Shown one piece after another: positions 16,283 to 60,253 of a DNA stretch of 64,000 nucleotides. Under the pieces are notes generated by a model. The model searched no databases. It saw only the letters and a list, made by a program, of their open reading frames with translations, and was not told where the DNA came from. Source of the DNA: Podarcis erhardii (taxonomy: Eukaryota); the NCBI GenBank assembly GCA_964252035.1, contig OZ176216.1; one strand, given 5' to 3'. Made by a program: the position numbers and the translations under genes. The number at the start of each line of letters is the position of its first letter. Positions within the stretch are counted from its first letter, which is position 1.

Positions 16283-16936
16283 TGTTGTTGTTGTTTAGTT
16301 GTTTACTCGTGTCTGGCTCTTCGTGACCCCATGGACCAGAGCACGCCAGGCACTCCTGTCTTCCACTGCCTCCCACAGTTTGGTCAAACTCATGCTGGTA
16401 GCTTCGAGAGCACTGTCCAACCATCTCATCCTCTGTCGTCCCCTTCTCCTTGTGCCCTCCATCTTTCCCAACATCAGGGTCTTTTCCAGGGAGTCTTCTC
16501 TTCTCACGAGGTGGCCAAAGTATTGGAGCCTCATCTTCATGATCTGTCCTTCCAGTGAGCACTCAGGGCTGATTTCCTTCAGAATGGATACGTTTGATCT
16601 TCTTGCAGTCCATGGGACTCTCAAGAGTCTCCTCCAGCACCATAATTCAAAAGCATCAATTCTTCGGCGATCAGCCTTCTTTATGGTCCAGCTCTCACTT
16701 GCATACATCACTACTGGGAAAACCATAGCTTAACTATACGGACCTTTGTTGGCAAGGTGATGTCTTTGCTTTTTAAGATGTTGTCTAGGTTTATTATTGC
16801 TTTTCTCCCAAGAAGCAGGCGCCTTTTAATTTCGTGGCTGCTGTCACCATCTGCAGTGATCATGGAGCCCAAGAAAGTAAAATCTCTCACTGCCCAATCT
16901 CTCATTCATGGAGCCCAAGAAAGTAAAATCTCTCAC
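16283..16936 (-). mobile_element. Bov-B LINE, 5'-truncated, one frameshift, inserted in a hAT MITE remnant
   Basis: Minus-strand ORFs 16711-16905 and 16295-16726 give the Bov-B RT C-terminus. (CAA)n tail. 8-bp TSD tttagtct at 16275-16282 and 16937-16944. Confidence 0.95.
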
Positions 16937-17325: not shown

Positions 17326-17778
17326 GCCTGCTAGCCTGCTCCCTAAAATATAACTGGTTTGCTCATTTCTATATATAGGGTGCCTACATTCTGCATGGAC
17401 TGGTTGTATGGCAACATCTAGCATGCAGACTGCAGTGCAACACAGTTGATTGTAGGTCAAAGCTGTTGTACCTGTTACCTAATATTAAAGAGTGCTTGTA
17501 GACTGATGATCAGGCAGCATAGACTGAGGGTATGAGTATGATTTCATGTAATATATTATTTATTTTGATGCCATTATAAAATTACTTTAGAAAAATATTC
17601 ATCTTTATTATTTAGTAGGCCTATATTATTATTTACTAGTATAGTTCCCACTTGCTGCTATAATACTATATAAATATAGTATTTATATAAATATTATAAA
17701 TATATTAAATATTTTACTTACTTACTTATAAAGTAAGGTTACCAGATTTTTTTCAATGAATCAACTTCCTACTAAATA

Positions 17779-18453
17779 CAGTGGTACCTCGGGTTAAGAA
17801 CTTAATTCGTTCTGGAGGTCTGTTCTTAACCTGAAACTGTTCTTAACCTGAAGCACCACTTTAGCTAATGGGGCCTCCTGCTGCCGCTGTGCCGCCACTG
17901 CACGATTTCTGTTCTCATCCTGAAGCAAAGTTCTTTTTTTTTTAAATAATTTTTTATTAATTTTCCAATTTTTAACACTAAACAACAACAACACACAAAC
18001 ATCAACAAATACGAACACACACAAAAAATATCATTTCTTAACCTCATTTTCATACGCCTCGTTTCTCGGACTTCCCCATACCTCACCCTTTTCACATCCT
18101 TATTTTACAGTTTTTCAACAACCCTTTTTGCCAATTAAATTTAAACTCATTGTCATTCTCAATTTCACCTTAAATCATCAAACAGTTTTAGCTGCAATTC
18201 TGCATCTTCCTTCCCCTTGACATTTTATCACTCCTCTATTTTACAACAGTTCTTAAGATATAGTTTAAACTTTTTCCAATCTTCCTCCACTGTCTCTTTC
18301 TCTTGGTCGCGGATTCTGCCGGTCATTTCTGCCAGTCCCATAAAGTCAATCACTTTCGTCTGCCATTCCTGAAGCAAAGTTCTTAACCCAAGGTACTATT
18401 TCTGGGTTAGCGGAGTCTGTAACCTGAAGTGTATGTAACCCAAGGTACCACTG
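17779..18453 (+). mobile_element. Tc1/mariner-pogo (Tigger-like) MITE split by an L1 insertion
   Basis: TIR cagtggtacctcgggtta / taacccaaggtaccactg with flanking TA on both sides. Confidence 0.9.
17936..18366 (-). mobile_element. L1 3' end (ORF2 C-terminus plus 3'UTR)
   Basis: Minus strand WQTKVIDFMGLAEMTGRIRDQEKETVEEDWKKFKLYLK, with AATAAA and polyA. 18-bp TSD tcctgaagcaaagttctt at 17918-17935 and 18367-18384. Target TTCTT/AA resembles the L1 endonuclease consensus. Confidence 0.9.
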
Positions 18454-18483
18454 TAGATGGATTTTGTCAGGGAACTGATTTGC

Positions 18484-23186: not shown

Positions 23187-23935
23187 TTGCGTGGCAATTT
23201 CCCACTTCCCACCACAAGAAATAAAGACACAAGACACCATAGCTTAAGGTTAGTGGGCGAAAATTGGCCACAACTTTATTGATTGCAGGAAATGAGTGGT
23301 ATTGGCCTAGGCATTGGCCCTATCAAGTATCCGGCTTCAGGCTGTATGCCTGAGAAGCCTGGAAGGGTTAACACCAGCAGGGGGAGCCCTGCTGATGCAC
23401 ATCAACTAGGCACTCCCCTGGGGTCACCGCTCAGGGGCGTGCCTTGGGCCCTGGCCTCCCTAGGCTTCGGACGGGGCCATGCCCCCGTAGTCCTTTACCG
23501 GACTACCCTTTGCAACCGGGGGAAGTGATGGCGTTCCTCCCCCCCATCCATCTACATAACAATACCCCAACCAATGCCTTACCGCCAAACCATGGAAGCT
23601 GTGACGATTAGCTACGAGGTAGGCGAAAAAAACAAATGGCCGGTGCCAATTTGCCAAGTGGAAAAATTCCTACCAGGCCCCTTAACGGTGACCAACCAAA
23701 GTCTATAGCAAGGTCAAAGGGAAACCTTAAAGGAAGGGTGGGTGGGAAATTCCCCAGCTGATTGGCAGCGGCAAAGAGGGAGCTCCTTTGCCACACATGC
23801 CTTAAGAGCGGCAAGCCACACCCCCTGAGCCAGCCGATAGGCTGGCCAGGGCATGATGTGGCAGAGAATTCCCCCCTGTACGCACGGGGCTGAGAGCCAG
23901 CCTCCGCACAGGAGTTGGGGGCGGGAAGCCCGCAA
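23187..23935 (-). mobile_element. No-TSD element with TTGCGGG...CACGCAA termini (candidate Ngaro/DIRS-type solo repeat), copy A
   Basis: GC- and CpG-rich island. Termini and internal motifs are colinear with 42109-42903, including aataaagttgtggcc.aatttt. No TSD and no ORF homology. Confidence 0.6.
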
Positions 23936-24662
23936 CCCCACCTCCTCCCTAGGGTCAGAAATGGCTTTAGTACCAACACCTTGAACTTGGCCCAGTAGCA
24001 AATTGGCAGCTAGTGCAAATCTCACAGGCAAGCTGTTATATGCTGCTGGTAATTTGCCCCCACAAGCTGCCACATTCTGCACCAGTTGTAGGATCTGGAC
24101 CAATCCCAGGGGTAGCTGCATATAGAGCAGATTTCAGTAGTTCAGCCATGGGGTTATCAATGCATGGGCAACTCTGTCTAAATTCTACTGAGCCAGGAAT
24201 GGCCATGGCTATCTTACCAACTGAAGTTGGCAAAAACCACTCCTAGACACTGAGGATACCCATGCCTCAAGTGACAGATACAGACCTGGATCGAGGAGTA
24301 CACCCAAATTATGCTCCAACTGCTTCAGGGAGTGTGTGATCCTATCCAAGGCAGGCAACGTACTGACCTCCCAGAACTAGGAATGACTCATCTGAACTAT
24401 GTACTTTCAAGAATTCAGTCTCAGTTCATTAGCCCCCATCCAGCCCAGAACCCAAGGCCAATGCTGCAATGAGGAAAGGCAATTTGCCACAGGCAGCAGA
24501 TCCATCCCCCTCTCTGCCTCTACCACTGTGTTGCTGCCAACCCCATTGTGGCTTTGCCTCTGCCGCCACCACTGCTGCTACAACACCCTTGCTGATCCTC
24601 ATTTTCTAGAATAATAGCACTGATGAAAAGTGTTGTGGGTGCCAGTGAAAAACTGATGACAT

Positions 24663-24666
<4 letters not shown>

Positions 24667-24696
<30 letters not shown>
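24667..24696. repeat. (AG)n microsatellite
   Basis: About 15 units. Confidence 0.95.
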
Positions 24697-24703
<7 letters not shown>

Positions 24704-25080
24704 CTATTGGGTACTGTCACAAGAATATCACTGAATTAGAGGCGCTGGGGGTTGGCAGTAGGCCCTTTACTGGGACATGGGCCAGTGCCCAACAATGCTG
24801 CCCATTTGGTGTTGGCCTGGCTGATAAGCGAATGTAGTTTTGCAGACACATGATGCAACTTGCTATTTATTTTTTCATATCCACTATGAATATGAAAATA
24901 GTTGTGCATGATAATCAGAGGTTTTTAAGTGGCCATTAAACATTAGTAACCTGTTTCCATTTCTGCATTTAGCAATTCAAGTGATGTGGACACATACCCA
25001 TGATTAATGAATGCTGTGAGCGGGAGGCATTGTTTTTGTTTGTTACTATATGTGCATTTTTTTATATATATATTGTAAGA

Positions 25081-25386
25081 CATGGGTAGGCAAACTAAGG
25101 CCCGGTGGCCGGATCTGGTCCAATCGCCTTCTAAATCCAACCCACAGACGATCCGGGAATCAGCATGTTTTTACATGAATAGAATGTGTCCTTTTATTTA
25201 AAATGCACCTCTGGATTTATTTATGGGGCCTGCCTGGTGTTTTTACATGAGTAGAATGCGTCCTTTTATTTAAAATGCATCTCTGGGTTATTTGTGGGGC
25301 ATAGGAATTCGTTCATTTTTTTCCTTCAAAATATAGTCTGAGGGACAGTGGACTGGTCCCCTGCTGGAAAAGTTTGCTGACCCCTC
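25081..25386. mobile_element. hAT (Charlie-like) MITE with internal 70-bp duplication
   Basis: TIR catgggtaggcaaact / agtttgctgacccctc. 8-bp TSD ttgtaaga on both sides. Internal repeat at 25166-25229 and 25238-25300. Confidence 0.85.
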
Positions 25387-25814
25387 TTGTAAGATAATCT
25401 GATCCTCAGATGAAGTGTGGTATAGAAATGTTGTTGTTGTTGTTGTTGTATCATGATAAGTTCCTTTATATCTGCTCATTTTGCACCAGTGGGATGATAA
25501 TGAGCCAGACAAGGTTACAATGTACCAAGACAACCCCAATTGAAGGGTCACAGAACAGATTCAGAGCTCCAGTACATGTTTGATAAGACTGTGAGTCATT
25601 AAGATATGAAGGCATATGCGCTGCACTCCTTTCTTATGGTTGAATTACCTGGTGAATTTTGCACTGATGGTGACAATTCCCCATTCTAAGGGTGGTGGAC
25701 ATATTTGGATGGCTTGCCTAGGAAAACTGGTGGAAACTGATGTGTTCCTGTACGCTCTGGATGATTCTCCAGCAGACAAAGATGACAATTCTGTCAAAAC
25801 CCTGGCCCCACTAT

Positions 25815-26200
25815 GGAATAGCAAGATGATCCTTGATGGATCAGACAAAAGGTCTGTCTAGTACATTGTCCTATTTTCCTCCTGGCTATTGGATGCTTTT
25901 GAGATGCCTGCAAGCAGGACCCAAGTGCAACAGCACACTTCCCAGATGTGATTTCCAGTAACTGGTACTCAGAGGCATTCTGCCTCCAACAATATAGGGA
26001 GAGCATTGTCTTATTTTCCATGAATTTGTCTAATCCTCTTTTAAAGCTGTCAAAGCTGGTGACCACCACTACATTCTGTGACAGTGAATTCCATAGCATA
26101 ACTATGTGCTGTGTGAAGAAGTACTGTCTGTGGTCTGTCCTGAAACTTCAAACATTCAGCTTCGGTGTATTGCCCTAAGTTCTAGCATTAAACACATTTA
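25815..26200. mobile_element. CR1-type 3' remnant
   Basis: gaatttgtctaatcctcttttaaag...gaattccatagcataactatgtgctgtgtgaagaagtac, homologous to 8900-9140. Confidence 0.6.
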
Positions 26201-26839
26201 CCATGTTCCCCATTACTCATCTGTTTTTGAAACAAGGCCCAAATTCTGTAACCTTTCCTCCTGGGTATATCTGGCGAGAAAGAAAAAAAGAATTTTTCTT
26301 TTGGTTCTTAATAACCCAGTCATTAATATATCTACAGCCCAATCAGCCTGAACCAAAACTTATTTATTTAGAAGTGAATTCCACTGTGTCCAGTTAGATT
26401 TATTAAGTGTCCTCAGGCTCTGATCTGTAAGTAATTTAGATACCTTCCTCAAGAGTAGCCGCATTGACTTACACTTTGGTCTTATTCTTGGCCATCAACA
26501 TTTAAACCAAAAGAGAGCCTCTGTTGAATTTACTGTCAGTTATATTTAGGGTACTTTTACACAGCCAAACTTCAGTAATGTTGCCATCGTTAACAATGGA
26601 CAAGTTGTGTCAGCTTCCAGACAGGTTGTCCTGAGGCAGGATATATGCAGACTGCTGGCTGTAAAGAGAGGAAGATGTAGAATATATTACATCCTCTCTC
26701 TGCTCCTTTCCCGACCATCTCTGCTGCCCCCTTTTCTGGCTACACCTTATACAAGAACAAGCTTTTAATTTGTTTGCTGTGCAACTGAAAGTCTGGACCC
26801 ATGATAAACAAGGTTAACCAAGACCTTAGGCAAACTCGT

Positions 26840-28110
26840 CTCCTGCTAGCCCCTTACATTTTTCCTTTTTGCAATTCGTTTTGTTAGTTTTGGTCGAGTT
26901 CTCTGATCTGTTAAGGTCATCTTGAATCCCAATTCTGACTTCTGTGGCATTGACTCCTCCTCCCAGTTGGGTGTCATCTGCATATTTGATGAGCATCCAC
27001 TCAGTACATTCATCCAGGTGGTTTATAAAGATGTTGAACAACAATGGGGCCAGGACAGAACACTGCGGCATCCCACTTGTTATCCCCCCCCCCCCCCAGA
27101 AGATGAGAAATTGTTAGCATGCACTCTTTGGGGTTGGTCAGTGAACCAACTACAAATCCACATAACAGTTACTTTGTCCAGATCACATTTTACCAGCTTC
27201 TCCACAAAAATAGCATGGAGATCTTTGTCAAAAGCCTTACTGAAATCAACATACGTCGCTGTATGTCCACATCATTCTCTTCATCCACCAAGCTTGTAAC
27301 TCAATCCAAAAAAGAAATGTTCATCTGGCATGACTAGGGTTTTTGGGTTTTTTAGTAACTACTGTTGAGTCTTAAGTAATCACAGCATCCTTTTCTAAGT
27401 GTTCACAGACCAATTGTTTAATTATCTGTTCTAGGACCTTTCCTGGTATTGACGTCAAGCTGACTGGTAGGTCTTTTTCCCCCTTTTCTGAAGATGGGAA
27501 TATTTGCCCGTCTCCAATCCACAGGGTCCTCATCTGTTCTCCAAAAATTCCCAAAGATTATAGACAGAGACTCTGAGATTACATCCACAGGCTCCCATGG
27601 GTGCAGCTCATCAGGCTCTGGAGATTTGAATTGGTTTAACATTGCTAGTTGTTCCCTTATCACCTCTTTTCCTATTTTGGGCTGCAGCTTCCTCTTTGCA
27701 TCATTTATTCCATTATCACCAGGTTGGGCACTGCTTTCCTTTTAAGTGAAGACAGAGGCAAAGTAGGTCTTCAGTAGTTCTGCCTTCTCTCTATCACCCA
27801 ATAGCATTGCTCCATCATCTCCATGCAAAGGACATACACAAACACAGACAAAGGAATATATATATAAAACCTCTCTTGCAAGCCTGAGCTTATTCTGAGC
27901 TTTGGTCCACCTGAACCCACCAGGGTTCAGTAGCCCTGAAACTGTTGGCTACTCATGTATCCTTTCATGATTTCTCTTTTCTTCCATTTCTTATACATGC
28001 CCTTCTTACATCTCAGCTCATCTGTAAGCTCCTTATGCAGCCACACCAGATTCTTTAGATGCTTCCCCCACAAGGTTCTCTGTACTTTCATTTCATCAAT
28101 TGGTTCCTCT
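26840..28110 (-). mobile_element. CR1 LINE RT fragment (frameshifted, old)
   Basis: Minus frames give PQCSVLAPLLFNIFINHLD...KYADDTQLGG, PVSLTSIPGKVLEQIIK and PVDWRRANIPIFRKG, which are CR1 RT motifs. A 130-bp unrelated block lies at about 27832-27960. Confidence 0.9.
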
Positions 28111-29035
28111 CAGTTGGTGAGGTGGGTTGACAGAGGAGTGATGTTGCTGAAGCAACAGTCAACCTTAGAACCTTAGAACCTTACACAGGAGCAGTAGTTC
28201 TGTCTGAATTGCAAGCTCTGCCTTCACTGAAAGTTGCCTCTTCGGTGAAAGTTCCAACACTGCTCCAGAAAATGTTTACTCCAATGGTTGCACTGCAGGT
28301 TCTGGGATGGTGTCATCTGAGTCAGAGGGTCACAATGCATCATTGTTGGGCTGGAGGGGACTGGCAATATGGCCTTATCTTGCAGTTTTACTTCTTGGGC
28401 TGACCCTGCTGATTCCTCTGTCTCATTCCATGATCCAGCCTCAGAATTATGACAGTAAGTGCTGGCTAGGAAGTAACAGGAGGAAAGATAGATATACTCT
28501 GATCAAAGCAAAGGAAGCTTGCCTAAATGATTAGGGTATGAGGAAAAGATTTCAATGCCTAAAACTAATAAGAGCCCACACTGATGGGACAGGCTTTCTT
28601 GACTTTTATCCAGTGTTCTATTTCAGCTAGCACAAGGTCTCTTGCACTAGTAGATGGGTGAGTTTTAATATTGTGAAATAGGAGAAACTTATGCAGGCAT
28701 TGTGCAAGTGGGGACTCATTGTACTTATCAATCAATTCTCCTGTATAACAATGTTCAACAGCTGCAAACCATTTCACCAGTGGTGCAAGTATACTGTTAA
28801 GTGACAATAACCTATTGCTGCATTGCACAGAACCTTTGGAAATTAGCTTCTTGAGACATTGCAGATCATAAGAACATAGGAAAAATCTGCTAGATCAAGT
28901 CAGTAGACCATCTCATGCAGCACCCTGTTCCCACAGGGGCCAGCCAGAGGCCTATGGGAAACCCACAAGCAGTGCATGGGCACGGGAGCCTTCTCCCTTC
29001 CTGCAGATTCCAGCAACTGGTATTCTGAAGCATTA

Positions 29036-29261
29036 CAGTGGTACCTCGGGATAAGAACATAATTTGTTCCAGAGGTCCGTTCATAACCTGAAACTGTTCT
29101 TAACCTGAAGCACCACTTTAGCTAATGGGGCCTCCTGCTGCCACCGCTCCACCGCTGCTCGATTTCTGTTCTCATCCTGAAGCAAAGTTCTTAACCTGAG
29201 GTACTATTTCTGGGTTAGCAGAGCCTGTAACCTAAAGTGTATGTAACCCGAGGTACCACTG
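29036..29261 (+). mobile_element. Tigger-like MITE, inserted in a CR1 remnant (about 28868-29310)
   Basis: TIR cagtggtacctcggg / cccgaggtaccactg, TA flanks. Confidence 0.92.
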
Positions 29262-29477
29262 TACTGTAACCTCTGACCATAGAAGCAGAGCACAGGCCTC
29301 ATAGCTAGTAGCTCTCATTTATAAAGGATATAAATAAAAGAGTTATTGCCATTTATAAACCCATATGGTGTCTTTTCTTCTTATTATTACTGGAGTCTGG
29401 TGCAAATGTATGATCAAGTATGAACATTTTCACACTCTTAATTATACCACCCACTTCATTTTCTAGTGCAGGGAATA

Positions 29478-29852
29478 CAGGGGCTTCTTACCCATAGAGG
29501 CTAGTGGTGTGGGGCGCCAGGGCACCAAGTTCTGGAGGGCGCCATGGAAGAGGTGGAGGTTGGACTTGGCGCCTCCCAGCATTACCTCACCGCCCTCGGC
29601 CGCCTCCGCCATGCAGAGCAGTGCTGGTCCCGGAGCCTCCGGGCAGCCAGCTGAGCCGGGAGGTGCCGCGTCCAGCCTCTGCCTCTTCCTCACCGGAGGA
29701 GCTGCCCTCCAGCCGGAGGAGCTGCCCTCAAGCCACTGCCGGCCTCCTCCAGCCCCGCCAGCAGCACCGTCCTCCCTAAAAAACTCTGGGAAATGGGGGG
29801 GCGCCAGAGGGAGCTTTGCACCATGGCGCCGGATATGCTTAAGACGGCCCTG
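29478..29852. mobile_element. GC-rich hAT-type MITE
   Basis: Right end atgcttaagacggccctg. Degenerate left end caggggcttcttacccat. Repeated gggcgcc subterminal motifs. No TSD seen. Confidence 0.6.
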
Positions 29853-32315
29853 TTTACCTTCATGAGAACAGCTCGAATTATGTGCAAAATAATAATAATA
29901 ATAATCAGGAATTGATCATAATCTATGTGCTAGAGACCACATCTGATCACTGGAAGATGAAAGTCTACATTCATCAGCACTGAATACCAAGCTCGCTAAG
30001 GATTATCATTTAAATTTAACACAACCCTCACTGCTTTATACAGTCCAAAACCATATGCACAAGTTTTCAAAATGTATTTTTCAGCCTTTGATGAAAAGAC
30101 ACTTCAGGTTTGTGGAGGAGAGTCTCCTTGTGCCTAATCCAGAACAAAATTTGGCAAGCCTTTCTGTAAACACCCAAGGTTTGGAGAAGCTGATGAAAGA
30201 GTACTACATATTCAAATCAACACTTATTTAAATCATACTCTCTTCCTGGCTTTCTCTGCATTGCACTCTCTCTCTGCCTCCTCCCCCCCTCCCAATTTTC
30301 CACCCCTTTCAGTGAGGTCACCTTGATTGAATGAAGGACGCGTGGAGTGAGAGAGGTCAGGCATTAGCAGAACTATAACTGCACTGCTACTGAGAGTAGG
30401 AGGGCCATCCATCACTAGCTACACTACTCCATTAGGCCGCACATGAAATATTCCCTGCTCTGAATTGCAGGGTCATACATTTCCCAGTCTAGACACCTTC
30501 CTGTTGTGTGGAGATCAATGCCGCACGGTCATGCATCATGTGTCATCCCATAGCCCTCGCTCTAATAATCGTGTCTATTCTCTAGTCTGCTGTATAAATT
30601 ATGGCACTGGCAAAAGAGCTATATTATCCAGCAACCTTGGTCACTAATGGATTATTGGTTTATTGGCTGATAATGTGAGCTCCCCTTTTTTTTGGCTGAA
30701 ACTCACATTTATTTATTTATCTTTTCTCATTATTGCTCAGTATGAGTGATGGCTGCTGGGTATTCCTCCCTTTCTTCCCTGTCTCTGCTGATGCAAGACA
30801 AATAAACAGCAATAATAAATACTGGAATGCAATAGTGGCAATGCACAGGCTTTTCCAAGGAAATATGTCCTGGAAACCTCCCCCAGCAGAGATGGAGAGT
30901 AGTTTCAGGTCTTTTGCATTCAAAGGCACATAGCAAAAGCAAGCTTTGCAATGCAATGCCCAGTAAACCAGAGTTTACCAGACTGAGCATCTGAGCATCA
31001 CCAGTTTTCCTTTTGTGAAATGGGTATTTTGCCATGTACTGGGAAAACATGTGGCTTGCATTTGGAGTCGTTCCCTCCCCCACTTGGAAAAGTAATTACG
31101 ATAAATTTTGACTGAGTGCTGAATGGAACTATTGATGGACAAAGGAAGCAACTGGCTAAGAGAGGAGGACTGGAAGTAGGAGGGGCTAAGCCCACGGCTT
31201 AAATCTTAAAACAATATTGTTCAACTGGATCTTTAGTTGCACATGAAATTCATAGATGACAAAGTGGAGAGGTTATTTCACAAAATACTCTCCAGGTATT
31301 CTCAGCAACTTTAAGAGAAACTTGAAAAAGAACCCCCCCAAAAAAAAAAAAAATAATCCAAAAAAATTATGGGAAATTTTGGCTCAGCCTTTGGATATTT
31401 GCTATTGCACTGGGGTCCTACATGAGAATCTAGTGCTACAAAATGAATGCAGCAGAGATAGAGAACCTGTAGCTTCCCAGAGGTGTGTTTTTAAAAAATT
31501 ATTTGCTAAACTACAACTCCCAGCATCCCTTACCATTAGCTATGCTGGCCACGGCTGATGGGATATGTTGCCCAGCTTGTGGAGAGCCACAGGTTCCCCA
31601 CCTTGGTATATAGAATGACAAATAATGAGCCAAATAATGACACTACACTACCCAGGAATAAAGCCAATTAATTCAAGGGGACTTACTTCTGAGTAGCCCG
31701 CTATAGGATCGTACTGCTAACTTGGAAAAGTTCCAGCATAAGAGGTGTACATTTTGGAAACATTCTCCATGTAACAGTTATAGCACTGAATAGAAAATGG
31801 CTACATAAAGTACATATAGTACTTGTTTCATAATGTGTGTGAGTGCAGCGCTGTCTCACCCACAAACCAGACTCAGGTAGCTGCTTTGGGCAGTGGAATC
31901 CTAAGGTCTGGAGCCCCATGGGCATTCCACCCATGCCTGCTGCCACCAGAGGAGTGAGGAGAGGTGGAGGCAGTGGCTTCCAGTGAGATCTTGTGAGATT
32001 CACAAAGACTGATTTATCTACTAGCTAAAATGGCTGCATGGAACAAACCCTTGTTATATAGAGATCGTATAGCCTCAACTCCACAGCTGCTGGCGAAGAA
32101 CATCTGCTCACATGCCCTGCATGTGGGTTTCCCAAAAACATCTGATTGGTTACTGTAGGAAACAGGAAGCTGAATTAGATAAACTTTACTCCCATCGTTC
32201 TTGACCATTGCCCATGTTGGCTGGGGGTGAAGGTAGTTGTAGTCTTATCAACATATGGGGGTCCAAAGCTGGGGAATGCTGAATTATTATCTTAATTTAT
32301 TATAATGATTTACTG

Positions 32316-32438
32316 TAAGGTTACCAGACGTCCCCGTTTCCTGGGGACAGTCCCCGGATTTACACATCAATCCCCATACAAAATCCATTGAAGTTGAAAA
32401 GTGTCCCTGGATTCATTGAAAAGAATCTGGTAACCTTA
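32316..32438. mobile_element. Short hAT-type MITE (TAAGGTTACCAGA TIRs)
   Basis: Perfect 13-bp TIRs. A one-ended relative lies at about 17736-17765. TSD not evident. Confidence 0.75.
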
Positions 32439-32446
32439 CTGTAAAG

Positions 32447-32773
32447 CAGGGGTCAGCAACCTAAGGCCCATGGGCCACAAGTGGCCCATGGGGATCGTTT
32501 AACCAGCCCATGGACCCCCGCTGCCCACTTAGGGACCTCCACCACCCACTCAGTTGGCTCCCATACACCACGCTAAATTGACCCAGACCACCTTCCGCGA
32601 CACTGGAAGCTCCTGCAGCCAATGAAAAGCTGTGCAAGCCTCCTTCACGCTGGAAGGAGCACCGGAAATAGCATTTGTGCATGTGTGTGTGTGTGCATGC
32701 GCACACTCCGGCCCACCGCAGTGTCTTTGGGACCGTGAACCGGCCCAAGCCACAAAAACCTTGCTGACCCCTG
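32447..32773. mobile_element. hAT (Charlie-like) MITE
   Basis: TIR caggggtcagcaa / ttgctgacccctg. Perfect 8-bp TSD ctgtaaag. Confidence 0.92.
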
Positions 32774-33289
32774 CTGTAAAGTGTCTTGAACCAACTACTG
32801 GAAAGGAGGGGTAAAGATACATTTTAAGAAAAAACACCATATTTAAATAAAACAATTTTATTGAGCTGCAATTGAGACTTTCAAACATTCCATACATTGC
32901 TTCATGTCTTTCCAGTTCAACATTCTTCTCGATGTGTTCATAAGAAGTGCATGTATCATTATCATATGTATGATGGCACTGCATGTGCAATGCTAATGCC
33001 TGCCTAAGAAGAGGGAACTGGCAGGAAATGAAAAATCCCCAGCTTCCTTCTTGCAGCAGGACCAGAAATTGCTTTCTTCTGAAATTACTTCTTGCTACAG
33101 TGATATAGCGTTTGCAGTGCATGTTGGGATATGCAATCCATCTTCCGACATACAAAGTCAGCGAGGGCGGGGTGCTGAATCTGGGGAACGAGGGAGAAAG
33201 AGAGAGAGGGAGAATGAAAACCACAATTCCTACACACATTTCAGCATTGGTTTTGATCCATGGCCAAGGTCCTCCACCTGCAGAAATCT

Positions 33290-33950
33290 TCAACTATCAC
33301 ATTTCCACTGCTCTGGCCGATAACGAAGATAATTGTTTCATCCACTTTGTCAAGCTGAAATGAAAAGAGGGCAAAAGCAAAATGATGCCGCCATAAATCA
33401 CAGCCCTGAGACAGCGCAAAGGGGGGGAAAGGACAAGATAGTGACTTCATTAAGGGTTATGTATTGTGTCATTAAGTTGGCAGGGGTCACCTTTCATGTC
33501 ACGCTGGCATCCCATGATGCATTGCCAGCTCCTCTTTCCAATAAAATTAAACGTAGATGTAAAACTGATTAGGCCGTGTTTGCTTCAGCCCAAGGCAAGG
33601 AAACGGCTCGGGGAATAATTGATACAAGATCACGACTGATTCGTAATGGCAGCCATTTCTCATCCTGGTCATTTCATTGCTGACCTTGCCCATTAAAATA
33701 AGCCCAGCTGCCTTGAAAAGAGGCACTTTATTTGCGCCCCCTTCCCCCTCGACCTTCCTTGCCAGGAATTCATTTTCACATACTCCTCTCCTTGGAATTT
33801 TTCATTCAAAATTATTGCCAGTGAAATATGAATGCTAGCAGCTGAGTGGCTACCCTGCCGTTGGTTATGACAAAGTGCCCAAGAGCTACCCTTCCTGCAT
33901 CTCCTTGATGTCACAGCTGACACCAGCCTCATGTTTCAATGAGATTGCTG
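33290..33950. promoter_or_regulatory. Candidate conserved non-coding element
   Basis: TE-free with retained CpGs. ccataaatca at 33391-33400 equals TGATTTATGG (PBX-HOX consensus), plus several TAAT cores. Confidence 0.4.
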
Positions 33951-36900
33951 CTGGTGTCCAACCTTACTGCTGGCGTACTTGCATCCACTCACCACTCCCT
34001 TGCCAGCAGAATAGAAATCTAGTTCCACCATTGTGCAGGCTGGCTCAATAAAATATGGGAGTGTTGGAGGCCAAATCATGGTTTGGAAGCCACACGTGGT
34101 TCTTAGGGTGGCCATTTAAGCATCAACCAGAGAGAGAAAGAGAGAGAGAATGCAACACCAAAAATGAAGGCATGTATTTGCATATCCTAATTTCTGTTCA
34201 TAGATGAAAATGGATACTCTAACTTGCATAGAAATACATTACACCACCAGTTTCTCATGGGACACTGTGGAATGATACTTAAAAAACCCCAATAACAACA
34301 CCTATTCTCATTGTACGGCACCACTTTAAGTCTTGGATTTTAGTGGGCAACTTCAAAGCCTCTTCTGCTCTCTTCCCTTCTTACGGTTCTATATCTTTAA
34401 ACTGAACTGGGTCAGTCAGCCTTTTATTTAGAGGACAGTTCTCCATGAAGCAAGACACATGACTTCCCTAGTGGTTCTTGAGTTCTTTGAACGGCTGCTG
34501 AGAAATTTAAGACACAGGAACCCCTCCAGCCACTTATTGTATTTTCTCTCATCTCTCTGTTTGCCTGCTGGATCCATTTTCCTGCCCTGTGAGCCACAGA
34601 GAAACTTCTCACCCTCTGCTGATGGACAAATGGCACTCAGAGTTATCAGCATTGGCTAGAGAAAGATAGAAAGGACCATCATTCTCTACACTTCCTCCTT
34701 CAATATGCTACTGCATTCTTTGAATGTGTCAGGGATGCACTGTAAGCAATTCAATGAGGGAGCCAGGAACTAAGAATTATGCCAGGGTGTTGGAGCCAAA
34801 AAACAACAACACAGAGATTTTTTTTTATTGAATTTGTTAGTCACTTTATACTGTATTGCCCAGGAAAACCCAAAGTGACCTGCAACCAAACAGAGAAAAG
34901 CCAGACAAAAAACCCCCCAAATGTAGTATGGGGGTTCTTCTGGAGCCAACTCTGCCCCTGGTAGTCCAAATGGAGTCTGTGGCAATGATTCCCCACTATC
35001 TGCTATGGCTGATTCAACAGCTACAGTCATTCCTGGACAGAGATAGCCTTGACACAGGGATCCATGTTCTGGTAACCTCCCAATTGGATGTGAAGTTCTG
35101 AAGCAGCAGCTATTGGGGTGTTCAAATGAATATACACAGGCTATTGGACTACTTGAGACCCAGAGCACATAGATAAACCCTGAAGAGTTCTGACTCTGGT
35201 AACTCACGGGGGCTTTTTGTGTGTGTTTTTTTGTTTTTAAAAATGCAAGTTATTATCCAAAGACCTAAATGGAAAAAATGACTTAACATGGATAAATATC
35301 AGAAAATAGGGTTCATCCCTGGTAGATAGGAATAGCTGCAACATAAAAAATGCTAGACATCCCAATACAAATACTAAATACACCAAATCCAGTGCTGTCA
35401 CAAAATGAAACTTGCTATGTAGCGGTGTAGGCCGGAATGGAATGGAATATAATGGAATTGTAGGTGGGAATGGAAACAATTATATTGCAATAGCTTAGTT
35501 GATTTTTAATAACTTTTAATACAACTACTTCTATTTTTATTATGATACAGCTTCATTTTTATTGTGATGGAGAGCAATAATGAAATCAAGAGCTATACAA
35601 AGTGCTGGTATTTGGACCAGAAGAATAGGGTTAATGTTTAGTCCCGTTTTGCATTATGTTAAGCCTCTTGGACCAGTGCCCCTCTGAGAACCTGGGAGAT
35701 TTAGACATGCAGCTCCTCTGTGCTTAGATAACAAGGTGGCCATAAATGTGTCCTCTCAGAAACTTATCTATAGCCCCTCAAATGAGATTTCGTTCTCATA
35801 CAAAGAGCGAGCTTGGCCTCATAACTCAATTTATTTAGTTCCTGACTGCCCTTTCTTCCTTACTGCAGTGTCCATCCCATAATAGAGAGCACACGATGGC
35901 ATGCCACATATCAAAGCAGGCCTCCCCGGTGCTTTATATATCATTGTGCCAGAATAACCTCTTCAGATTTATGCTCCTTATGTTTACCACACTTTTTTCC
36001 CCTCTCAAGGAAGGTTAGAGAATGTGAGTTGAAGGCAGGTAGAAAGAAAGTGGAAGGAAAGTCATCAGAATTTTTAAAGTTCTTTCTCTACTTTTCCTGA
36101 GGCTGTGATCTTCCTGTAACAGCATGTTGTGGAGGCATAATTCCATCCCGACCTAGAAGTCTTTATAGTAGGTACTGTATGTGCACTGGCTCTGGCTGAA
36201 TCCCAGATCCCAAACCAAGTTGAGGTGATTCAGTTGGAGTGTTGAAGTAACCCAGATTATTTCAGGTCAGAATAGGTCCTCCTGGAGTGATCTGGGGCTG
36301 TCAAAAGGAAGATGGTCAGGTGGCAAGGAGAGAGGGGAAAAGGATATGCAGGCAGGCAGACTTCATTCATCTCCTCCCCCCCCCTTCCTGACCGCATGTT
36401 TAAACCCCAATTGAGGGTTGTGCAAGGCCCTTGACCCTGTCAGCACCTGGATCTGGGTCTCGTCAGCCCCAGAACATCAAGATCATATCATAGCTGTCCA
36501 AAGTGCTGAATCAGATTGTGTGTGTGTGTACTTTAAAGTCCTTCCAGATCAGCAGCAGTCCATGGCTGACCTGGTTGGGGGAGTCATGAAGAGCCTAGCA
36601 ACATTTACAGATCAGGAGGAGTCAATGGCTGCCCTGGATCATCACTGAATCATCAATAGCAGTCAGTAGTAGTCAATGACTACCATAGATGTGGAAGCCA
36701 TCAAGATCTTAGCAACACTCCCTTGCCATTCAAGCAGCAGCATAGTCATCCATGCATTCCCATTTCTAGAAATAAAAACAGTGTTGTGGGAACCATATGT
36801 TTCACTAGGTTTCCTCTTTACTCTGAAGCCTGACTCTCCACACTCAGTGGTCTTTATAACTAGCCCATAACTAGAATGACTGAAGCAACAATATATCTTT

Positions 36901-37589
36901 TTGTATAGCTCTGAAAGGCAAAGTCACTAATTATGATCCTTATCCAGTGTGCAACCATGAAAGAGATGGGATGTCAGGAACTGCTGAGCACTGTTCCTTA
37001 TGGTAAGCTAAGTCAGTGCAGCTTCTTAGTGAAGAACCTTCCACTGTGACTCCACCCAGGACCTATTGGCTATGCCTGTGCACAAAGGAGTGTAAGGGGA
37101 CTTCCTGTCTCACTAGGACCTTGCTTGAGCTTCAGTATGTCTTGCATTTCTATTCTTACTATTCAGTTCTGCCTTCTGATGCTGATGGCTTTGACTCCTG
37201 ACTTGCTTTTTAGTCCTGACTTCTCCCCCCATCCCTAATTGCTCTTCAACCCTGCCTCTTAGTTCTAGGTTCTTGATTTGTTTCAGGCTGCTGTCCATAA
37301 CCCATGCCTGGTATGTAACCAGTAATTTAAACCCATTTCTGTATCTCAGCTGGAATAGAAATAGCTCACCAGGTGGGGTGGAGTTGCTGTGATAGCTTCC
37401 AAGCATATGGGTCACTTTGGCTTACTGGAAAGGAGAGGGAGAGGGTTGAAGTGGTGTGGAGGTCAGCATGGTGCAAACACATTGGTCGGATTACTGGATT
37501 GGCTCTATCAGTGTGTTTCCACTGCGCTGACCTCCGTTTCATCTTGCCCTACTAAAAAAACAGCAACCAACATGAAGGAAGAGCTAGCA

Positions 37590-38260
37590 TAGCAGCTCTA
37601 CCTCACCTGGTCAGCCGCTTCAGAGTTTGAGAGGTACCAATTTTTAATGTAGATGGTGGGAGAAAGCTGGAACCCTATATGGAGAATGGGGAAAAAAGAT
37701 ACCCTCTTCTTTTCACACAGTAGCAAATGTGATGGCAAATAGAAGTCTGGGGCTTTCCTGCCATAAACAATAAATAGAAATATCAACCTTTCCCCCCCCC
37801 CCATCTGGCACAGATGGCCACAACGTTTATTTGACATTTTTCTCCCATGTATATATTTCATAACCGAATTCAGTCATTTGTGAACAATGTGGTAATAAAA
37901 GTGAATAATAATGATTGGAAGCATCTTAGTGTTATTTTAATGGGTCCCAGTGATTCTCATGGACCAACCCATTTCACTTCAAATACCCCAAGCCAGCTGC
38001 TCTAAAGGTGTAAATGTTGTTGACGTTGATGGGCAATTGAGGCCATTATTCTGTGGTAATGATTGCAAATGGTAAATGAACAATGCTGAAACCTGAAAGT
38101 GTTTCAGTAAGGGAGGTTTAAAAATGCTATATTATATTTAACGCCAAGAAATATAATGGGATACAACAAACAATACAGATGTTAATCAATTTCCATCAAA
38201 CTTTTACATTTGAACAGCTGTGTGCATTTGAACGCCATTGTCAACCACCAGTAGTAAAGC
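37590..38260. promoter_or_regulatory. Candidate conserved non-coding element
   Basis: TE-free. ccataaa at 37761, forkhead-like taaacaataaata, CAGATG/CAGCTG E-boxes and homeodomain cores. Confidence 0.3.
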
Positions 38261-38469
38261 TTAAGAAATCAGATTTGTGCAAATCTCAATATAAAATGAC
38301 TTTATTCTCTCCTTATTCTCATATACACATTTTCTCATGCATTTCCCCATGAAATAGTTATTGAATCACATTTATTGCATTTATGTACAAAACCCCCCAC
38401 ATTTTGTACACAATATGCTTCTTTTTATGTGCCTTTTCGTATACAGAAAATGGATTGCAAAATCTGAAT

Positions 38470-38628
38470 CAGTGGCGTAGCGTGGGGGTTGCAGGGGGGG
38501 CTGGCCGCACCGGGCGCAACATCTGGGGGTTAGGGTTAGGGGTAGGGTTAGGGGGCGCAAATCCATGGGTTAGGGGGTGCAAATTACTTGCCTTGCCCCG
38601 GGTGCTGACAACCCACGCTACGCCACTG
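38470..38628. mobile_element. hAT MITE carrying TTAGGG-like repeats
   Basis: 17-bp perfect TIR cagtggcgtagcgtggg / cccacgctacgccactg. Perfect 8-bp TSD atctgaat. Interior contains gggttagggttaggggtagggttaggggg. Confidence 0.92.
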
Positions 38629-40129
38629 ATCTGAATAAATGTGTAACTGGAAGTTGCATTCCAATCTGCAAGCAAATTTGGGAGTGCAAATAGCAAAAAA
38701 CAAAATAAACAAGTTCCTCACCCATCCCTACTCCAGAGGCCCTGGATCATGAAGGCTGTTTGTCGAACCTCTTGCTTGCAAAACTTGATAGTAGCTTGGA
38801 GACATTTTTAACTGTCTGGACCTGTTTTGTTTTTAAAATTCTGGGCTGAAATTTCACCAGAGCAGAAGTCTTCCCTCTTTCATATTTTCTCAGTGAGCAC
38901 AGAGAACTTAGGCAGTGGTTGTAGTGGAAGGTAGTCACCGGGGCCCCCTCAGTTCTAGAGTGCTACTTCTGCTGTTTTTACTGCCCCACAATGATGCCAC
39001 ATCATGATGTAACATCCTTCTGGGTGGCATTTTCAAAAACTTTGCCAGATATCTCTAAAATTAAAATGTAGCCAGCGGGGGCTGCCATTTCTCTCATAGA
39101 ATGCTCCTCAAAATGATACTATGGTGTAGCATTGTTCAAGGGTATTGTGAGTTTCTAAACACACACACACACACACAATGGCAGTCAGTGGCAGAAAGTA
39201 ATTGGCAGGGGGTGTCAATGAAATGCTCCTGTCTTCAAATCCCTCAGCCCCTATAAAAACAGTTCTGCAACCTGTGAATGGGAACATTAAGAAAGGAGAA
39301 TTCACTCAGAAAAAGCAATTCTCTAGTTTATGGCATTATGGGAAATTTTGACAGCAGTTCATCACCTGACATGGACCTGAGTATGCCTGTTGTTCACCAC
39401 CAAGTAAGCCCACCAGGGACCAACTGCTGTAGGGAGCATCCCACAAGAGGACATTCTTCTGAAGTCTTCCTAAAACCTGGGGCTGGCCCTGTTTCTATGT
39501 ATACATGCTTGTAGTCCACCCTAACCCATCCAGCTTAGTGTTGTCACCATTGACTGCCAGTAGCTCTCTGGCATTTCAGGCAGGAGTCCTTCCCAGCCCC
39601 ACCTGATGATGCCAGAGAGTGAATCTGGGACCTGTTGCATCCAAATCACGAGTTCTACCACTGCGCTGTGGCCCTTCCCAAAGCAACATGTGGCTATCCC
39701 ATTTCATCCTCCTGTGAGATAAGGGACAATCCAAATAGAATCCAATGAATCAGAGATTTGAATCCAAGCCTCTGCCTCTTGAAGCTTTAGCTGCATCGCC
39801 ACTTTGTTTTAGACATTAACTTTTGGCAAGTGATGTTAAAATATGATGCAAGGGCCACCCTTGTGAATGTCTTTAAAGAGAGGAGTTTCACCCCCATAGA
39901 ACGATGCTTCTTTCCCCCCATTCCTTCATTCTGACCTTGGCATTTTCTTTCTCCACTCCCAAGTTCCTTTGCCATCCTCTGTCCAGCTTTGCCTCCCATT
40001 TGTCAATGTTGTTATTGAATTTTCAAATGCCAGGAGTGCACATAAATCAATGGCCCGCTTCTCCCCAGTGGCATATCCCTGCCACATGTGGTCATTCATT
40101 TTTTTTAATAAGTCTGCCTCTCCTTTCTC

Positions 40130-40490
40130 CCATTTATAAAAATGCATCTTGGTCAGCCATTGCCGTCCATCATTCGGGGAGTCCAGCTATTTGTTGTCCT
40201 CGAGTGCTTATTCATCAACGTTTTCAAAAGCAAAATCACTCTTTGCCTCTTGCTCTTATTGTGCCATCAATCTTGACTGGAGATCAATAAACTGCACTGT
40301 TGCAATTTCCCTCCTCCGCCCCACTGACAACGCACCCAGGCTAGCTTTCCCGGAGTAAGTGTTTTTATTTACATTTTTAACTGATCGTTTGGTGCCAGGC
40401 AATGGCAGTGTCATCGCAAAGAATGCTTTCATAGGCTCCCAGAGTAACAATAACTATCCGAGCATCGGTCATTTCATGCAGTAACCCCAA
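40130..40490. promoter_or_regulatory. Candidate conserved non-coding element
   Basis: TE-free with many CpGs. ccatcaatct at 40264-40273 (PBX-HOX-like), ctgaca (MEIS-like), ttggtgccaggcaa (NFI-like). Confidence 0.4.
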
Positions 40491-40895
40491 AGAAATGGAT
40501 ACTCAGCACATCCATTTGCTTTGCTCTCATAGCATCAATCATAGCGGGAGAAAGAGAAGGAGGAAGGGATGCAGGGATGCGGAAGGAATTCAGCATGGTT
40601 CACTTTTTAATGTGGGCATACCAAATACATGCTTAGCTTTCATGCTTTCCAGTTGCTGGAAACCACAGGAGAGAAGAGTGCTTTGGGGCTCAAATCTTTC
40701 CCCACTGACATCTGGTTGGCCACTGTGATAGCAAGATGCTGGAATAGGTGGGTCATTGGTCTGATCCAGCAGGCTCTCCTTATGCTCTTAGGTGCACACA
40801 TCTATGCATCCAGTGTGCTCCCACTGCTTTCTGTGAAGCCATACATTTGACGCTAGCCACAGTCCACATCTGTCCTGAAGTTTCTTTAGAAATGG

Positions 40896-42053
40896 AGGGA
40901 CCACTAGGGGCGCATCAGAAGATGGCTGACAATAACTTCTCTCCGACCCACATGAGGTAAATTGGAGGCTGTGATGGGAGTAAATAGCCTCCCTACCCCT
41001 CCCCAGGATTGTGGTGGGGGACTGCCCTTGCCTGCTGTGCCCTATACCACCCCCGAATTTGTGGGGATGGGGGCACTAGGCACAATGCCCTCCTGTGAGA
41101 TTTCGGCGCTCCTGGATGCCGTCTCTGATCCGCGCCACTAGCTGCAAGAACTTCAAAAGAAACAATTTGGATGAAGCGAATGCACATGTTTCAAGGAAGA
41201 AGGGGGAATAAAGACTGCTAACAGAAGAGATCTCTGATAAAACAAGACGAGTCGGAGGAACAAATATAAATCATGAGAAGATACGCCAAGACTTGGTATG
41301 GCAAAGGGACTGATGGGGGAGGGGGAAAAAACTTTCCTTTCTTTCCCTATGTGATTAAACAAGAATCCCCCCCCCACAAGTCAGAAATGTCATTTTAAGG
41401 ACTTAAGCTGTGGATTTAAGGCTGTGTGGAGATAAACTTTCGAACCAAAGCATGTTTTAAGAAGAGCGTGGAATGTATAAGGGCTTTGGAATGACGCAGT
41501 TAAAGATTCCGTCGCCATATTGGGAAGTTCTGTCGGAGGACTTAAGTCTGAGAGGAGAAATAGAGAAATAGAGCTGTTTTTATATTGTGGGTGAAACTCC
41601 TCAGTGGGACTTAAGAACGACAGTTCTGTAATTAATGATGGAAAGAGCGCTGTTATCTATGAAGGCGATGATATATGGAAACCATCTTGATTTGAGGATT
41701 GGAAGAACGGAAAAATTCACACAGGATTATTATTGGTGTTTATCGGCTTAAGGAGACTATCAGAAGAGATCATAAAGAAAAAAGAGAAAATATATGAACA
41801 AGATGTGAGGTGGAAACAGCAAGATAAGACTGGATAGAATTATGAACTTTGTTTGGACTGATTTGGACATTAACGCAGTGGCAAGAAGATGATCAGAATC
41901 CCCCTTCGGATCTTGAAATATGGGTTCCCTCAACAAAATTTAAAATTCGGCTTTGTAATTTGGAATTTATGTGATGTGATTTGATTTGATTTGATTTGAT
42001 TGGCCGGTTAATAAAAGTTATTTTTTAAAAAAGAAGAAGAAGAAGAAGAAGAA
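40896..42053 (+). mobile_element. ORF-less 1.16-kb non-autonomous retroposon (LINE-mobilised)
   Basis: Perfect 19-bp TSD gaagtttctttagaaatgg at 40877-40895 and 42054-42072. 5' end ggggcgcatcagaagatggctgac. 3' end (TTTGA)n, AATAAA, A-run and (GAA)n. No internal plus-strand ORF of 60 aa or more. Confidence 0.8.
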
Positions 42054-42108
42054 GAAGTTTCTTTAGAAATGGTGTAGTTTAATGAGCACTCACACTTTGC
42101 AGGATCCT

Positions 42109-42903
42109 TTGCGGGATCGCGCATGGTGCTACAGTTCCTAGGAAGCTTACTGGTGAACAGGGGCCGGCTTGCCTCTCAGTGTTAATTTTTGGAGGTTCAC
42201 GCCCAGCCTCAGTAATCAAGTTTCTTGCTGGGAGGTGGGGCCAGCCCCATTTATAAATAGGTGGTGGAGCCGACAATAGCCAGGCAGTCGGCTCTGGAGA
42301 TTCACCCTCCCTACCCTCCCTTTGTTTAATGTTTCTTGTTTGCAGGTTAACTTTTTCTTCCTGTTTAGCGGGCTCTGCCAGTCTTTGACTGGTTGCTGTT
42401 GAAGGACCGGGAAGAAATTTTCCTGCATTGGCAAGTTTTGTCTTCCCCATAGCAATTCATCACAACTTTGGCGGTTATGGTCTTGGGTGGAATCCTTTAG
42501 TCTTTTCTTCCCTATATGGGGGGGGGGGCATGAAGTGGTGACTCACCCCCCTGTGGCGCGATTCCAGGGTCCCCCTCTTAAAGGGGTTTTATATACATGG
42601 GTGTCACTGGCCATACACTGAAAGGTCATCAGTGAACTACCCTGCGTGCAGGGATATGGGCTGGGCTACCTGCTACACTTACGTCTCACAGAGCACCCCC
42701 ATATCCCATTAACCCTGATGAGCCTCAGTTCCCCTCGGATGGGGGGCTGAGAGGGATACACACCCAAGGCCTAAGCCAAGGTCTTCCTACATTCAGAAGT
42801 ATAATAAAGTTGTGGCCTAATTTTAATTCCATATAACGTTGTCAGTCTTTATTCCTTCCTCATGATCCCTGGGGGTTGGGGCTGTCGCTGCCTGGTCACG
42901 CAA
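42109..42903 (+). mobile_element. No-TSD element with TTGCGGG...CACGCAA termini, copy B
   Basis: TATA-like tttataaata at about 42250, aataaagttgtggcctaatttt at about 42803, colinear with 23187-23935. No TSD. Confidence 0.6.
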
Positions 42904-47280: not shown

Positions 47281-47326
47281 AAAATGCTCTGGCTGGCCTG
47301 GCTTAAACCAGACATAAGACACAGTA

Positions 47327-47555
47327 CAGTGGTACCTCGGGTTAAGAACTTAATTCGTTCTGGAGGTCCGTTCTTAACCTGAAACTGTTCTTAACCTGAG
47401 GTACCACTTTAGCTAATGGGGCCTCCTGCTGCCACCGCATGATTTCTATTCTCATCCTGAAGCAAAGTTCTTAACCCGAGGTACTATTTCTGGGTTAACA
47501 GTCTTTAACCTGAAGCGTCTCTAACCTGAAGCATATGTAACCTGAGGTACCACTG
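47327..47555 (+). mobile_element. Tigger-like MITE
   Basis: TIRs and TA flanks as in the other copies. Confidence 0.93.
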
Positions 47556-47750
47556 TACTGATTGGCCAATTCGCTGTTCAACTCAGGCTCATACAACTCC
47601 TTGGTTGCAATAGTAATCACTTGACTCTTTCTCCTTCAGTGTGATGTTCAGTGGAAGCTGGACAGGGATGTCTTCCAACAAACTACTCAGACCCTCCTTG
47701 CCACCAGTCTTAGTAATAACCTCCCAATCTTCTTTGCCTTTGACAAATCT

Positions 47751-51026: not shown

Positions 51027-51252
51027 CAGTGGTACCTCGGGTTACATACACTTCAGGTTACAGACTCCGCTAACCCAGAAATAGTGCTTCAGGTTAAGAA
51101 CTTTGCTTCAGGATGAGAAGAGAAATTGTGTTCCGGCGCCATGGCAGCAGCAGGAGGCCCCATTAGCTAAAGTGGTGCTTCAGGTTAAGAACAGTTTCAG
51201 GTTAAGTACGGACCTCCGGAACGAATTCAGTACTTAAGCCGAGATACCACTG
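51027..51252 (-). mobile_element. Tigger-like MITE (reverse orientation)
   Basis: Reverse complement of the 47327 copy, with TA flanks. Confidence 0.92.
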
Positions 51253-60121: not shown

Positions 60122-60253
60122 GGTAAAAGGTAAAAGGTAAAAGGTAAAAGGTAAAAGGTAAAAGGTAAAAGGTAAAAGGTAAAAGGTAAAAGGTAAAAGG
60201 TAAAAGGTAAAAGGTAAAAGGTAAAAGGTAAAAGGTAAAAGGTAAAAGGTAAA
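60122..60253. repeat. (GGTAAAA)18 array forming the tail of a Sauria SINE
   Basis: 18 perfect 7-mers plus one GGTAAA, contiguous with the SINE 3' end. Confidence 0.97.

Follow-up and report, generated by a model that had tools for sequence, protein, structure and literature searches.

Probable solo A-C-B end units of two Ngaro-type retrotransposon subfamilies in Podarcis erhardii, with an AA core and a covarying hairpin at the B|A junction

Two units found in a 64,000-nucleotide stretch of Podarcis erhardii DNA (contig OZ176216.1; the whole stretch is called the window below) are very probably solo A-C-B end units that derive from two subfamilies of tyrosine-recombinase retrotransposons of the Ngaro type, bounded by the dinucleotide AA at both ends. 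The first unit, E1, lies on the minus strand (23187–23968, 782 bp) and the second, E2, on the plus strand (42081–42903, 823 bp), both lengths including AA at each end. The units are non-coding, and their longest stop-free frames comprise 119 and 125 amino acids. Solo units of this sort are an already known kind of remnant, to which the solo AB units of Cafeteria and the SIRE element of trypanosomes belong. The resolved AA core, a covarying hairpin at the seam between B and A, and a loop resembling an expression and nuclear retention element (ENE) go beyond this known kind. The initial annotation had proposed solo A-B units; the solo Ngaro-type character was retained in our analysis, and the layout had to be revised to A-C-B, with an unrepeated spacer C of about 160 bp.

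The homology of both copies, suspected from a few shared motifs, proved to be far above chance. Global alignment of E1 and E2 scored 139.5 against a mean of –45 for 100 dinucleotide shuffles (z 10.0), local alignment gave z 17.6 against the same number of shuffles, and 461 of 727 aligned bases were identical (63%). The chain of motifs described earlier is present in the same order in both copies; the structural position of the motif ttggcaa is not equivalent in E1 and E2. Genome searches with each unit showed that both belong to dispersed families with thousands of candidate copies: 4876 first-look candidates, which are not copy numbers, were obtained for E1 and 1895 for E2. Forty were scored for each family, and the best other copies had 89% and 91% identity, respectively. 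Here and below, counts of loci, solos and element forms refer to the matches listed in the genome searches.

The identity of the units follows from longer elements of the same genome. Long copies with coding open reading frames (ORFs) flanked by the unit, which the initial annotation suggested looking for, were indeed found as full-length split-repeat elements with the structure A1-[gag-like, reverse transcriptase (RT), tyrosine recombinase (YR), SGNH]-B1-A2-C-B2, in which the A2-C-B2 tail is the unit of the E1/E2 type. The search of the genome for the integrase-type YR family PF00589 gave 11 matches over the cut-off, and 8 of these loci had the layout A1-ORFs-B1-A2-C-B2, with repeats 93–100% identical and the same poly(A) motif and end. 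A pattern of the E1-type B|A junction matched 27 times in the genome, versus one match of the control; B was located upstream in 10 of 20 junction loci examined, and 5 of 14 longer junction stretches were intact elements of about 8.1–8.4 kb. E1 is identical to the A2-C-B2 tail of one such element, L103, in 589 of 758 aligned bases (78%), and this is its nearest intact tail. Repeat A of E1 (23747–23968, minus strand) was mapped from the 221-bp A1/A2 repeat of L103; it is followed on the same strand by segment C (23588–23746), located between A2 and B2 and single-copy in the full element, and by repeat B (23187–23587), with AATAAA at 23280–23275, a GT-rich tract and the terminal CACGCAA.

The parentage of E2 was established less directly. 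Ranking of genome loci on its B alone gave L265, consisting of A, an SGNH-like tail and B, and L268, in which a fragment of the RT ORF is joined to B. The B of E2 is also joined to an SGNH tail in L278. Starting from the SGNH-like tail, we reached a young sister family that has YR, SGNH and B1-A2-C-B2 and in which B begins at the same base as in E2. Thus, the nearest relatives of E2 are deleted A-[SGNH tail]-B remnants and this sister family, to the tail of whose YR/SGNH-bearing copy L283 it is identical in 559 of 754 aligned bases (74%). E1 and E2 are both considered A-C-B end units because the parents and the sister family carry this tail. In E2 (plus strand), repeat A occupies 42081–42304, its end being known to about 5 bp (unit position 224–229 in L278 and L280), and has TATAAA at 42252; segment C occupies 42305–42468, and repeat B occupies 42469–42903, contains AATAAA at 42803 and ends in CACGCAA. 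The start of B was placed at unit position 389, where it begins in L268, L278–L280 and L282–L296.

The assignment to Ngaro rests on the architecture and the SGNH ORF. The RT, YR and GDSL/SGNH domains follow the vertebrate Ngaro layout of PMC9210276, where the available text describes DIRS-53_XT, a Xenopus Ngaro element (order DIRS) of the vertebrate type with an SGNH ORF, an A repeat of 236 bp and a B repeat of 152 bp. Like this element, the parents studied here have split direct repeats A1-ORFs-B1-A2-B2 in near-identical copies, the ORF order RT, YR, SGNH hydrolase, and an A repeat of about 215–230 bp. Unlike DIRS-53_XT, they have a B repeat of 385–450 bp and a single-copy segment C of 160–190 bp between A2 and B2; the available text of PMC9210276 makes no mention of solos, a hairpin or an ENE for the Xenopus element. 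The RT domain was recognized by Pfam (RVT_1, E 6e-14), the YR domain was over the cut-off in L081, and no methyltransferase family matched in the 10 ORFs scanned.

Several results weigh against this attribution. The YR match in L103 was below the cut-off, as were both Lipase_GDSL_2 (GDSL/SGNH) matches (E 3.7e-05 and 0.0018) relative to the curated cut-off, and no RNase H or gag family exceeded the threshold in the Pfam scan of parent ORFs. For the E2 family, neither a B|A junction nor a full-length parent was obtained with junction patterns: the first genome search gave 0 matches, the second none in 20 examined of 43 matches, and the third a single match that was not E2-like. An orthologous empty site for E1 was not seen in 4 of 24 listed runs from related organisms, where E1 was present; contigs from three of these 4 runs cross the 3' junction of E1 by at least 28 bases, one crosses the 5' junction, and none of the related-organism contigs examined at E1 cleanly skips the element.

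The boundaries of the units were refined by comparison of family members. CACGCAA, already proposed as one terminus, is the true 3' end, and this anchor is present in 28 of 30 loci of the E1 family and 27 of 30 loci of the E2 family. TTGCGGG, proposed as the other, lies inside the unit: family homology continues outward, starting 33 bp (E1) and 28 bp (E2) earlier, and copies share 28–35 further bases 5' of it, beginning with AAAGCCAC (E1 family) or AATGAGCAC (E2 family). These 5' anchors were located in 25 and 26 of the 30 loci of the E1 and E2 families, respectively, and loci without them, the window's own E1 among them, are truncated or mutated copies. The extents of both units given above are corrected accordingly. 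Because TTGCGGG is not the 5' terminus, TTGCG and CGCAA are not terminal inverted repeats, and the short imperfect inverted ends described earlier were a misreading. Similarly, removal of the element does not leave TT|AA; excision leaves one AA, the core shared by both ends. The two A positions of this slot at the left end were occupied by A in 69/72 and 63/72 cases, and AA was found in all 85 anchored right ends, 5 of 90 having been dropped for lack of the anchor (two of these may be true variants).

Beyond the core, the bias on the host side is weak: A was found at position –4 in 43/72 sites, C or G at –3 in 40/46 sites of the E1 clade, and T after the core in 18/27 E2 sites. The insertion of E1 itself lies within a host repeat. 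A paralogue of this repeat in related organisms reads TACTAA followed by CATGTAAG, that is, the flanks of E1 with a single AA, and another has AG in the slot; these paralogues fit a pre-insertion site with a single AA.

Two other identities were considered and rejected. A TATA-like box, AATAAA, a GT-rich tract and the length of about 800 bp could all belong to an ordinary solo long terminal repeat of gypsy or endogenous retrovirus type. This identity is extremely improbable: as the initial annotation had stated, E1 and E2 have no TG...CA ends and no ordinary target site duplication (TSD), and their parents encode YR and carry split repeats. In 67 full units from three families, a TSD of 5–6 bp was found in none, and shorter matches of 4 bp and 3 bp occurred in 1 and 3–4 units. 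Helitron2/Helentron ends have a terminal TTGCG, a subterminal CGCAA, a 3' hairpin and a T-rich target, so the end geometry of our units, read on the opposite strand as non-autonomous elements of this type, is superficially compatible with them. There is practically no likelihood of this origin either, since RT/YR elements carry this unit as their repeated tail and the hairpin extends across their internal B1|A2 junction; the split-repeat parents rule it out, their coding partners being RT and YR, although no dedicated search for Rep/helicase was made.

Remnants comparable with E1 and E2 have been described in distant eukaryotes. According to the accessible part of PMC8547959, isolated AB end units of a Ngaro element are scattered over the genome of Cafeteria burkhardae and were attributed to recombination between repeats. 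The solo end units studied here are likewise dispersed in the genome; unlike those of Cafeteria, they are represented by thousands of candidate copies and many subfamilies and have the A-C-B layout and a resolved AA core. In Trypanosoma cruzi, SIRE corresponds to A2+B2 of VIPER with an exclusive internal part of about 30 bp (PMC6681497, available portion). It resembles our units as an A-spacer-B unit of a YR retroelement with origin and mobility left open in that source, and differs in belonging to another superfamily and in its spacer, which is longer in our units and contains an ENE-like loop.

The simplest origin for the solos is collapse between repeats. A solo A-C-B would result from collapse between A1 and A2, and an A-ORFs-B form, which is also common, from that between B1 and B2; the solos were likely inserted by recombination at AA and were likely left after the loss of the coding interior. 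Among 60 YR loci, two B motifs were found in 23 (20 confirmed as repeats), one in 36 and none in 1. The single-B elements are the A-ORFs-B form because none of those with a visible A (12 of 20) was preceded by C-B. Against a purely passive collapse is the young L103 family: solos make up 21 of its 30 loci (14 of 23 when loci of about 94% identity or higher are counted), and one A-ORFs-B copy was seen (L299), though B is longer and its copies lie closer to each other than those of A.

This disproportion would fit an origin of solos as short elements, in which a two-junction intermediate is resolved, by the recombinase or by template switching of RT, into A-C-B and A-ORFs-B circles that integrate separately. 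On this view, solos would be mobile by-products and not products of decay, which concerns their origin and not their identity. Also in accordance with such an origin are the extension into C/A of 27 of 30 loci ranked on the B of E2 alone and the existence of tandem B-A-C-B-A arrays (L113, L189); the same question of origin was left open for SIRE in the accessible text of PMC6681497. Nevertheless, both products of homologous collapse are present, as the 36 of 60 YR loci with one B demonstrate, the permuted form A-C-B-A-ORFs-B was not encountered among those single-B elements whose A was visible (12 of 20), and the number of A-ORFs-B copies is a lower bound, because 119 of 1089 candidates were scored in the protein search. 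On balance, birth as short elements seems rather doubtful to us.

Some individual loci deserve mention here. Tandem B-A-C-B-A arrays of end units, or units with a further A start immediately after them, occur in L113 (6738–8086, oriented), L189 and L211. L109, L290 and L295 have internal deletions with A1 and B1-A2-C-B2 retained at 99–100% identity and are possibly young non-autonomous derivatives. In L285, a young element of the sister family adjoins a reversed piece of the E2 family.

The junction at which B1 meets A2 in full elements has a peculiar structure. In natural B1|A2 junctions, the CGCAA that ends B pairs across the seam with the TTGCG of A, which in E1 lies within the 5' end 23931–23968 (minus strand), together with the AA core and the inner hairpin; in E2, the 5' inner hairpin is damaged, being 6 nt shorter than in the family. 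The outer part of the hairpin has a constant layout of 3–4 bp, one bulged base (A in 27/30) and 5 bp ending in AA/TT, and the inner part consists of a 2×2 purine-rich loop, an inner stem of 8–9 bp and a variable loop. The insertion point is where the outer stem meets the internal loop. In 30 junctions, 89.2% of 539 cells were paired, two-sided changes were found in 11 of 18 hairpin pairs (85 cells), and one T·G opposition was invariant (30/30), other G·T oppositions occupying 3 of 509 cells. Slid control structures were at most 54% paired, none of 500 shuffles attained the values of the junctions for percentage paired, cell count or score, and among 28 distinct junctions, 26 had the outer stem in their minimum-energy DNA fold. 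This covariation, together with that of the ENE-like loop, lends support to the earlier suggestion that conserved islands of the units are recombinase or RNA cis-elements.

Other measures reduce the weight of these figures. Pair-type measures did not exceed the shuffles (73/500 and 498/500 reached them), the folding z of junctions ranged from +0.4 to –6.8 and was weak for some of them, and the covariation controls keep no phylogeny, while the sequences are related and the structure was derived from the same sequences. Single-strand folds of the 5' ends of the window units did not clearly surpass shuffles, and when ends of old solos were joined computationally they folded weakly (median z –1.5), with terminal pairing in 16/23 of the E1 family and 12/23 of the E2 family.

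We infer that the seam hairpin is the recombination substrate. Cleavage by the recombinase would take place at the edge of the hairpin's internal loop and join the element to a short target, approximately R-A-S-A-A for the E1 clade and A-T-A-A-T for E2. The reading that we prefer, and put forward tentatively, is that the seam recombines as folded single-stranded DNA. A typical RNA helix would hold more G·U-type pairs than the seam shows, and Cre-type sites have a spacer of 6–8 bp. A folded DNA form is favoured because G·T pairs other than the invariant one are so rare and because the outer arms, about 30–38 bp apart in linear DNA, are too distant for a Cre-type duplex site. It is also favoured because, in the accessible text of PMC7192593, cDNA of DIRS-1 is mostly linear and single-stranded (and antisense), as the substrates of attC recombination are single-stranded (PMC3458562, in part); the former source calls the recombinase specificity of a YR retroelement uninvestigated.

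Somewhat short of an even chance must be given to the alternative that the hairpin is an RNA signal (acting in packaging, RT pausing or read-through of B1) or a dyad of duplex DNA to which the recombinase binds. Of the two strands, the sense one gives the better fold in 30 of 31 junctions, whereas the DIRS-1 cDNA is antisense (PMC7192593), and the hairpin forms only at B1|A2, inside the transcript. The predicted YR model (pLDDT 68.8) has a Cre-like fold, with Cre top-ranked (TM 0.62) and the integron integrase 2a3v 46th (TM 0.52), which favours this alternative and weighs against the folded site. The strand clues conflict as well: variation of the left AA hints at exchange of the antisense strand (p 0.024 versus the right end, p 0.13 versus the neighbouring base), while folding favours the sense strand. 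Against the RNA signal or dyad stand the scarcity of G·T oppositions beside the invariant T·G and the 85 cells with two-sided changes, unlike a typical RNA helix, the position of the crossover exactly at the edge of the internal loop, and the distance between the outer arms.

If the seam does act as folded DNA, it would resemble attC (accessible text of PMC3458562), where the recombination point likewise falls within an imperfectly paired hairpin that has a bulged base, a centre left unpaired and a loop that varies, and pairing is retained while the sequence varies; this resemblance comes from sequence, and the YR model is Cre-like and not of the IntI type. A broader scheme, in which Ngaro integrates like an integron cassette, with the folded B|A seam recognized through its bulged base, 2×2 loop and invariant T·G, one strand exchanged at AA with a short degenerate target, and a reaction between seams freeing mobile A-C-B solos during replication, is in our opinion unlikely in its entirety. 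Neither a folded Ngaro junction nor the AA core was described in the literature searched, whose coverage stopped short of the founding Ngaro papers, Repbase/Dfam and supplements.

Segment C contains the second structure of interest. Two U-runs face each other between stems, forming a putative ENE-like internal loop at 23618–23674 in E1 (minus strand; lower stem GGTAGG/CCTACC) and 42409–42447 in E2 (plus strand; lower stem GGGAAGA/TCTTCCC, compensatory to that of E1). The lower stem was fully paired in 23 of 23 sequences; in 9 sequences chosen to span the clades, 54/54 cells were paired and two-sided changes occurred in 4 of 6 pairs, including between E1 and E2. The U-rich internal loop, the G-C-rich closing stems and the covariation fit the description of a single-domain ENE. 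Like the ENEs of the PAN transcript of KSHV (Kaposi's sarcoma-associated herpesvirus) and of Arabidopsis Evade, as given in the available parts of PMC12501189 and PMC7583470, the predicted loop is U-rich, flanked by G-C pairs and positioned upstream of the 3' poly(A) signal, outside the repeated end; unlike them, it is separated from AATAAA by about 350–360 nt. The ENEs of transposable elements listed in this literature come from plants, fungi, slime mould and stickleback retroviruses, and its accessible portion names no Ngaro or reptile element. No description of a Ngaro ENE was found in the literature searched, which did not extend to Tycowski 2016, Repbase/Dfam and supplements.

Folding energy alone does not favour this structure, z being –1.8 and –0.3 for the ENE region and not clearly better than shuffles. 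A third ENE helix was poorly supported (72.7% paired) and was discarded, and an Rfam scan of E2 with E values of up to 10 returned 6 weak matches, each far short of its gathering score. As to its possible role, the RNA would start near the end of A1, read through B1 and be polyadenylated in B2, and the ENE-like loop in C would protect the poly(A) tail; since C is single-copy and precedes B2 only, the loop would protect only complete transcripts. Splice-acceptor-like pyrimidine tracts ending in TTGCAG|GT were also observed in segment C of the E2 clade (window 42330–42370) and recur in that of L283 of the sister family. In repeat B, both copies seem, by eye, to have a stem-loop of unrelated sequence after TTAACCCT, upstream of the poly(A) signal, at window positions 23300–23375 and 42705–42780.

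As remnants, E1 and E2 are ordinary; the Ngaro population of this genome to which they point is large, diverse and still young, with at least 119 YR loci. The integration of YR retrotransposons is largely untried experimentally, and a seam of 55 nt with strong covariation and a base-exact crossover offers a concrete substrate. If the seam does recombine as folded single-stranded DNA, eukaryotes would have a counterpart of integron recombination, one whose target requirement is two to five bases.

The distribution of YR-bearing loci over the genome is uneven: one contig (C19, 30.4 Mb, 2% of the assembly) holds 45 of 119 (binomial p ~1e-44). Solos are not concentrated on it (0/40, 0/42 and 1/40 in three genome searches). 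This contig may be a non-recombining sex chromosome.

The window contains some other repeats. An inverted pair of 450 bp, 96% complementary and 6.6 kb apart, is located at 9211–9660 and 16282–16731, and a perfect (GGTAAAA)n array at 60121–60253 heads a repeat resembling a short interspersed element. Copies of a repeat with CAGTGGTACCTCGGG ends, which we take to be of a class similar to miniature inverted-repeat transposable elements, are found at 17771–18463, 29028–29263, 47319–47557 and 51017–51260.

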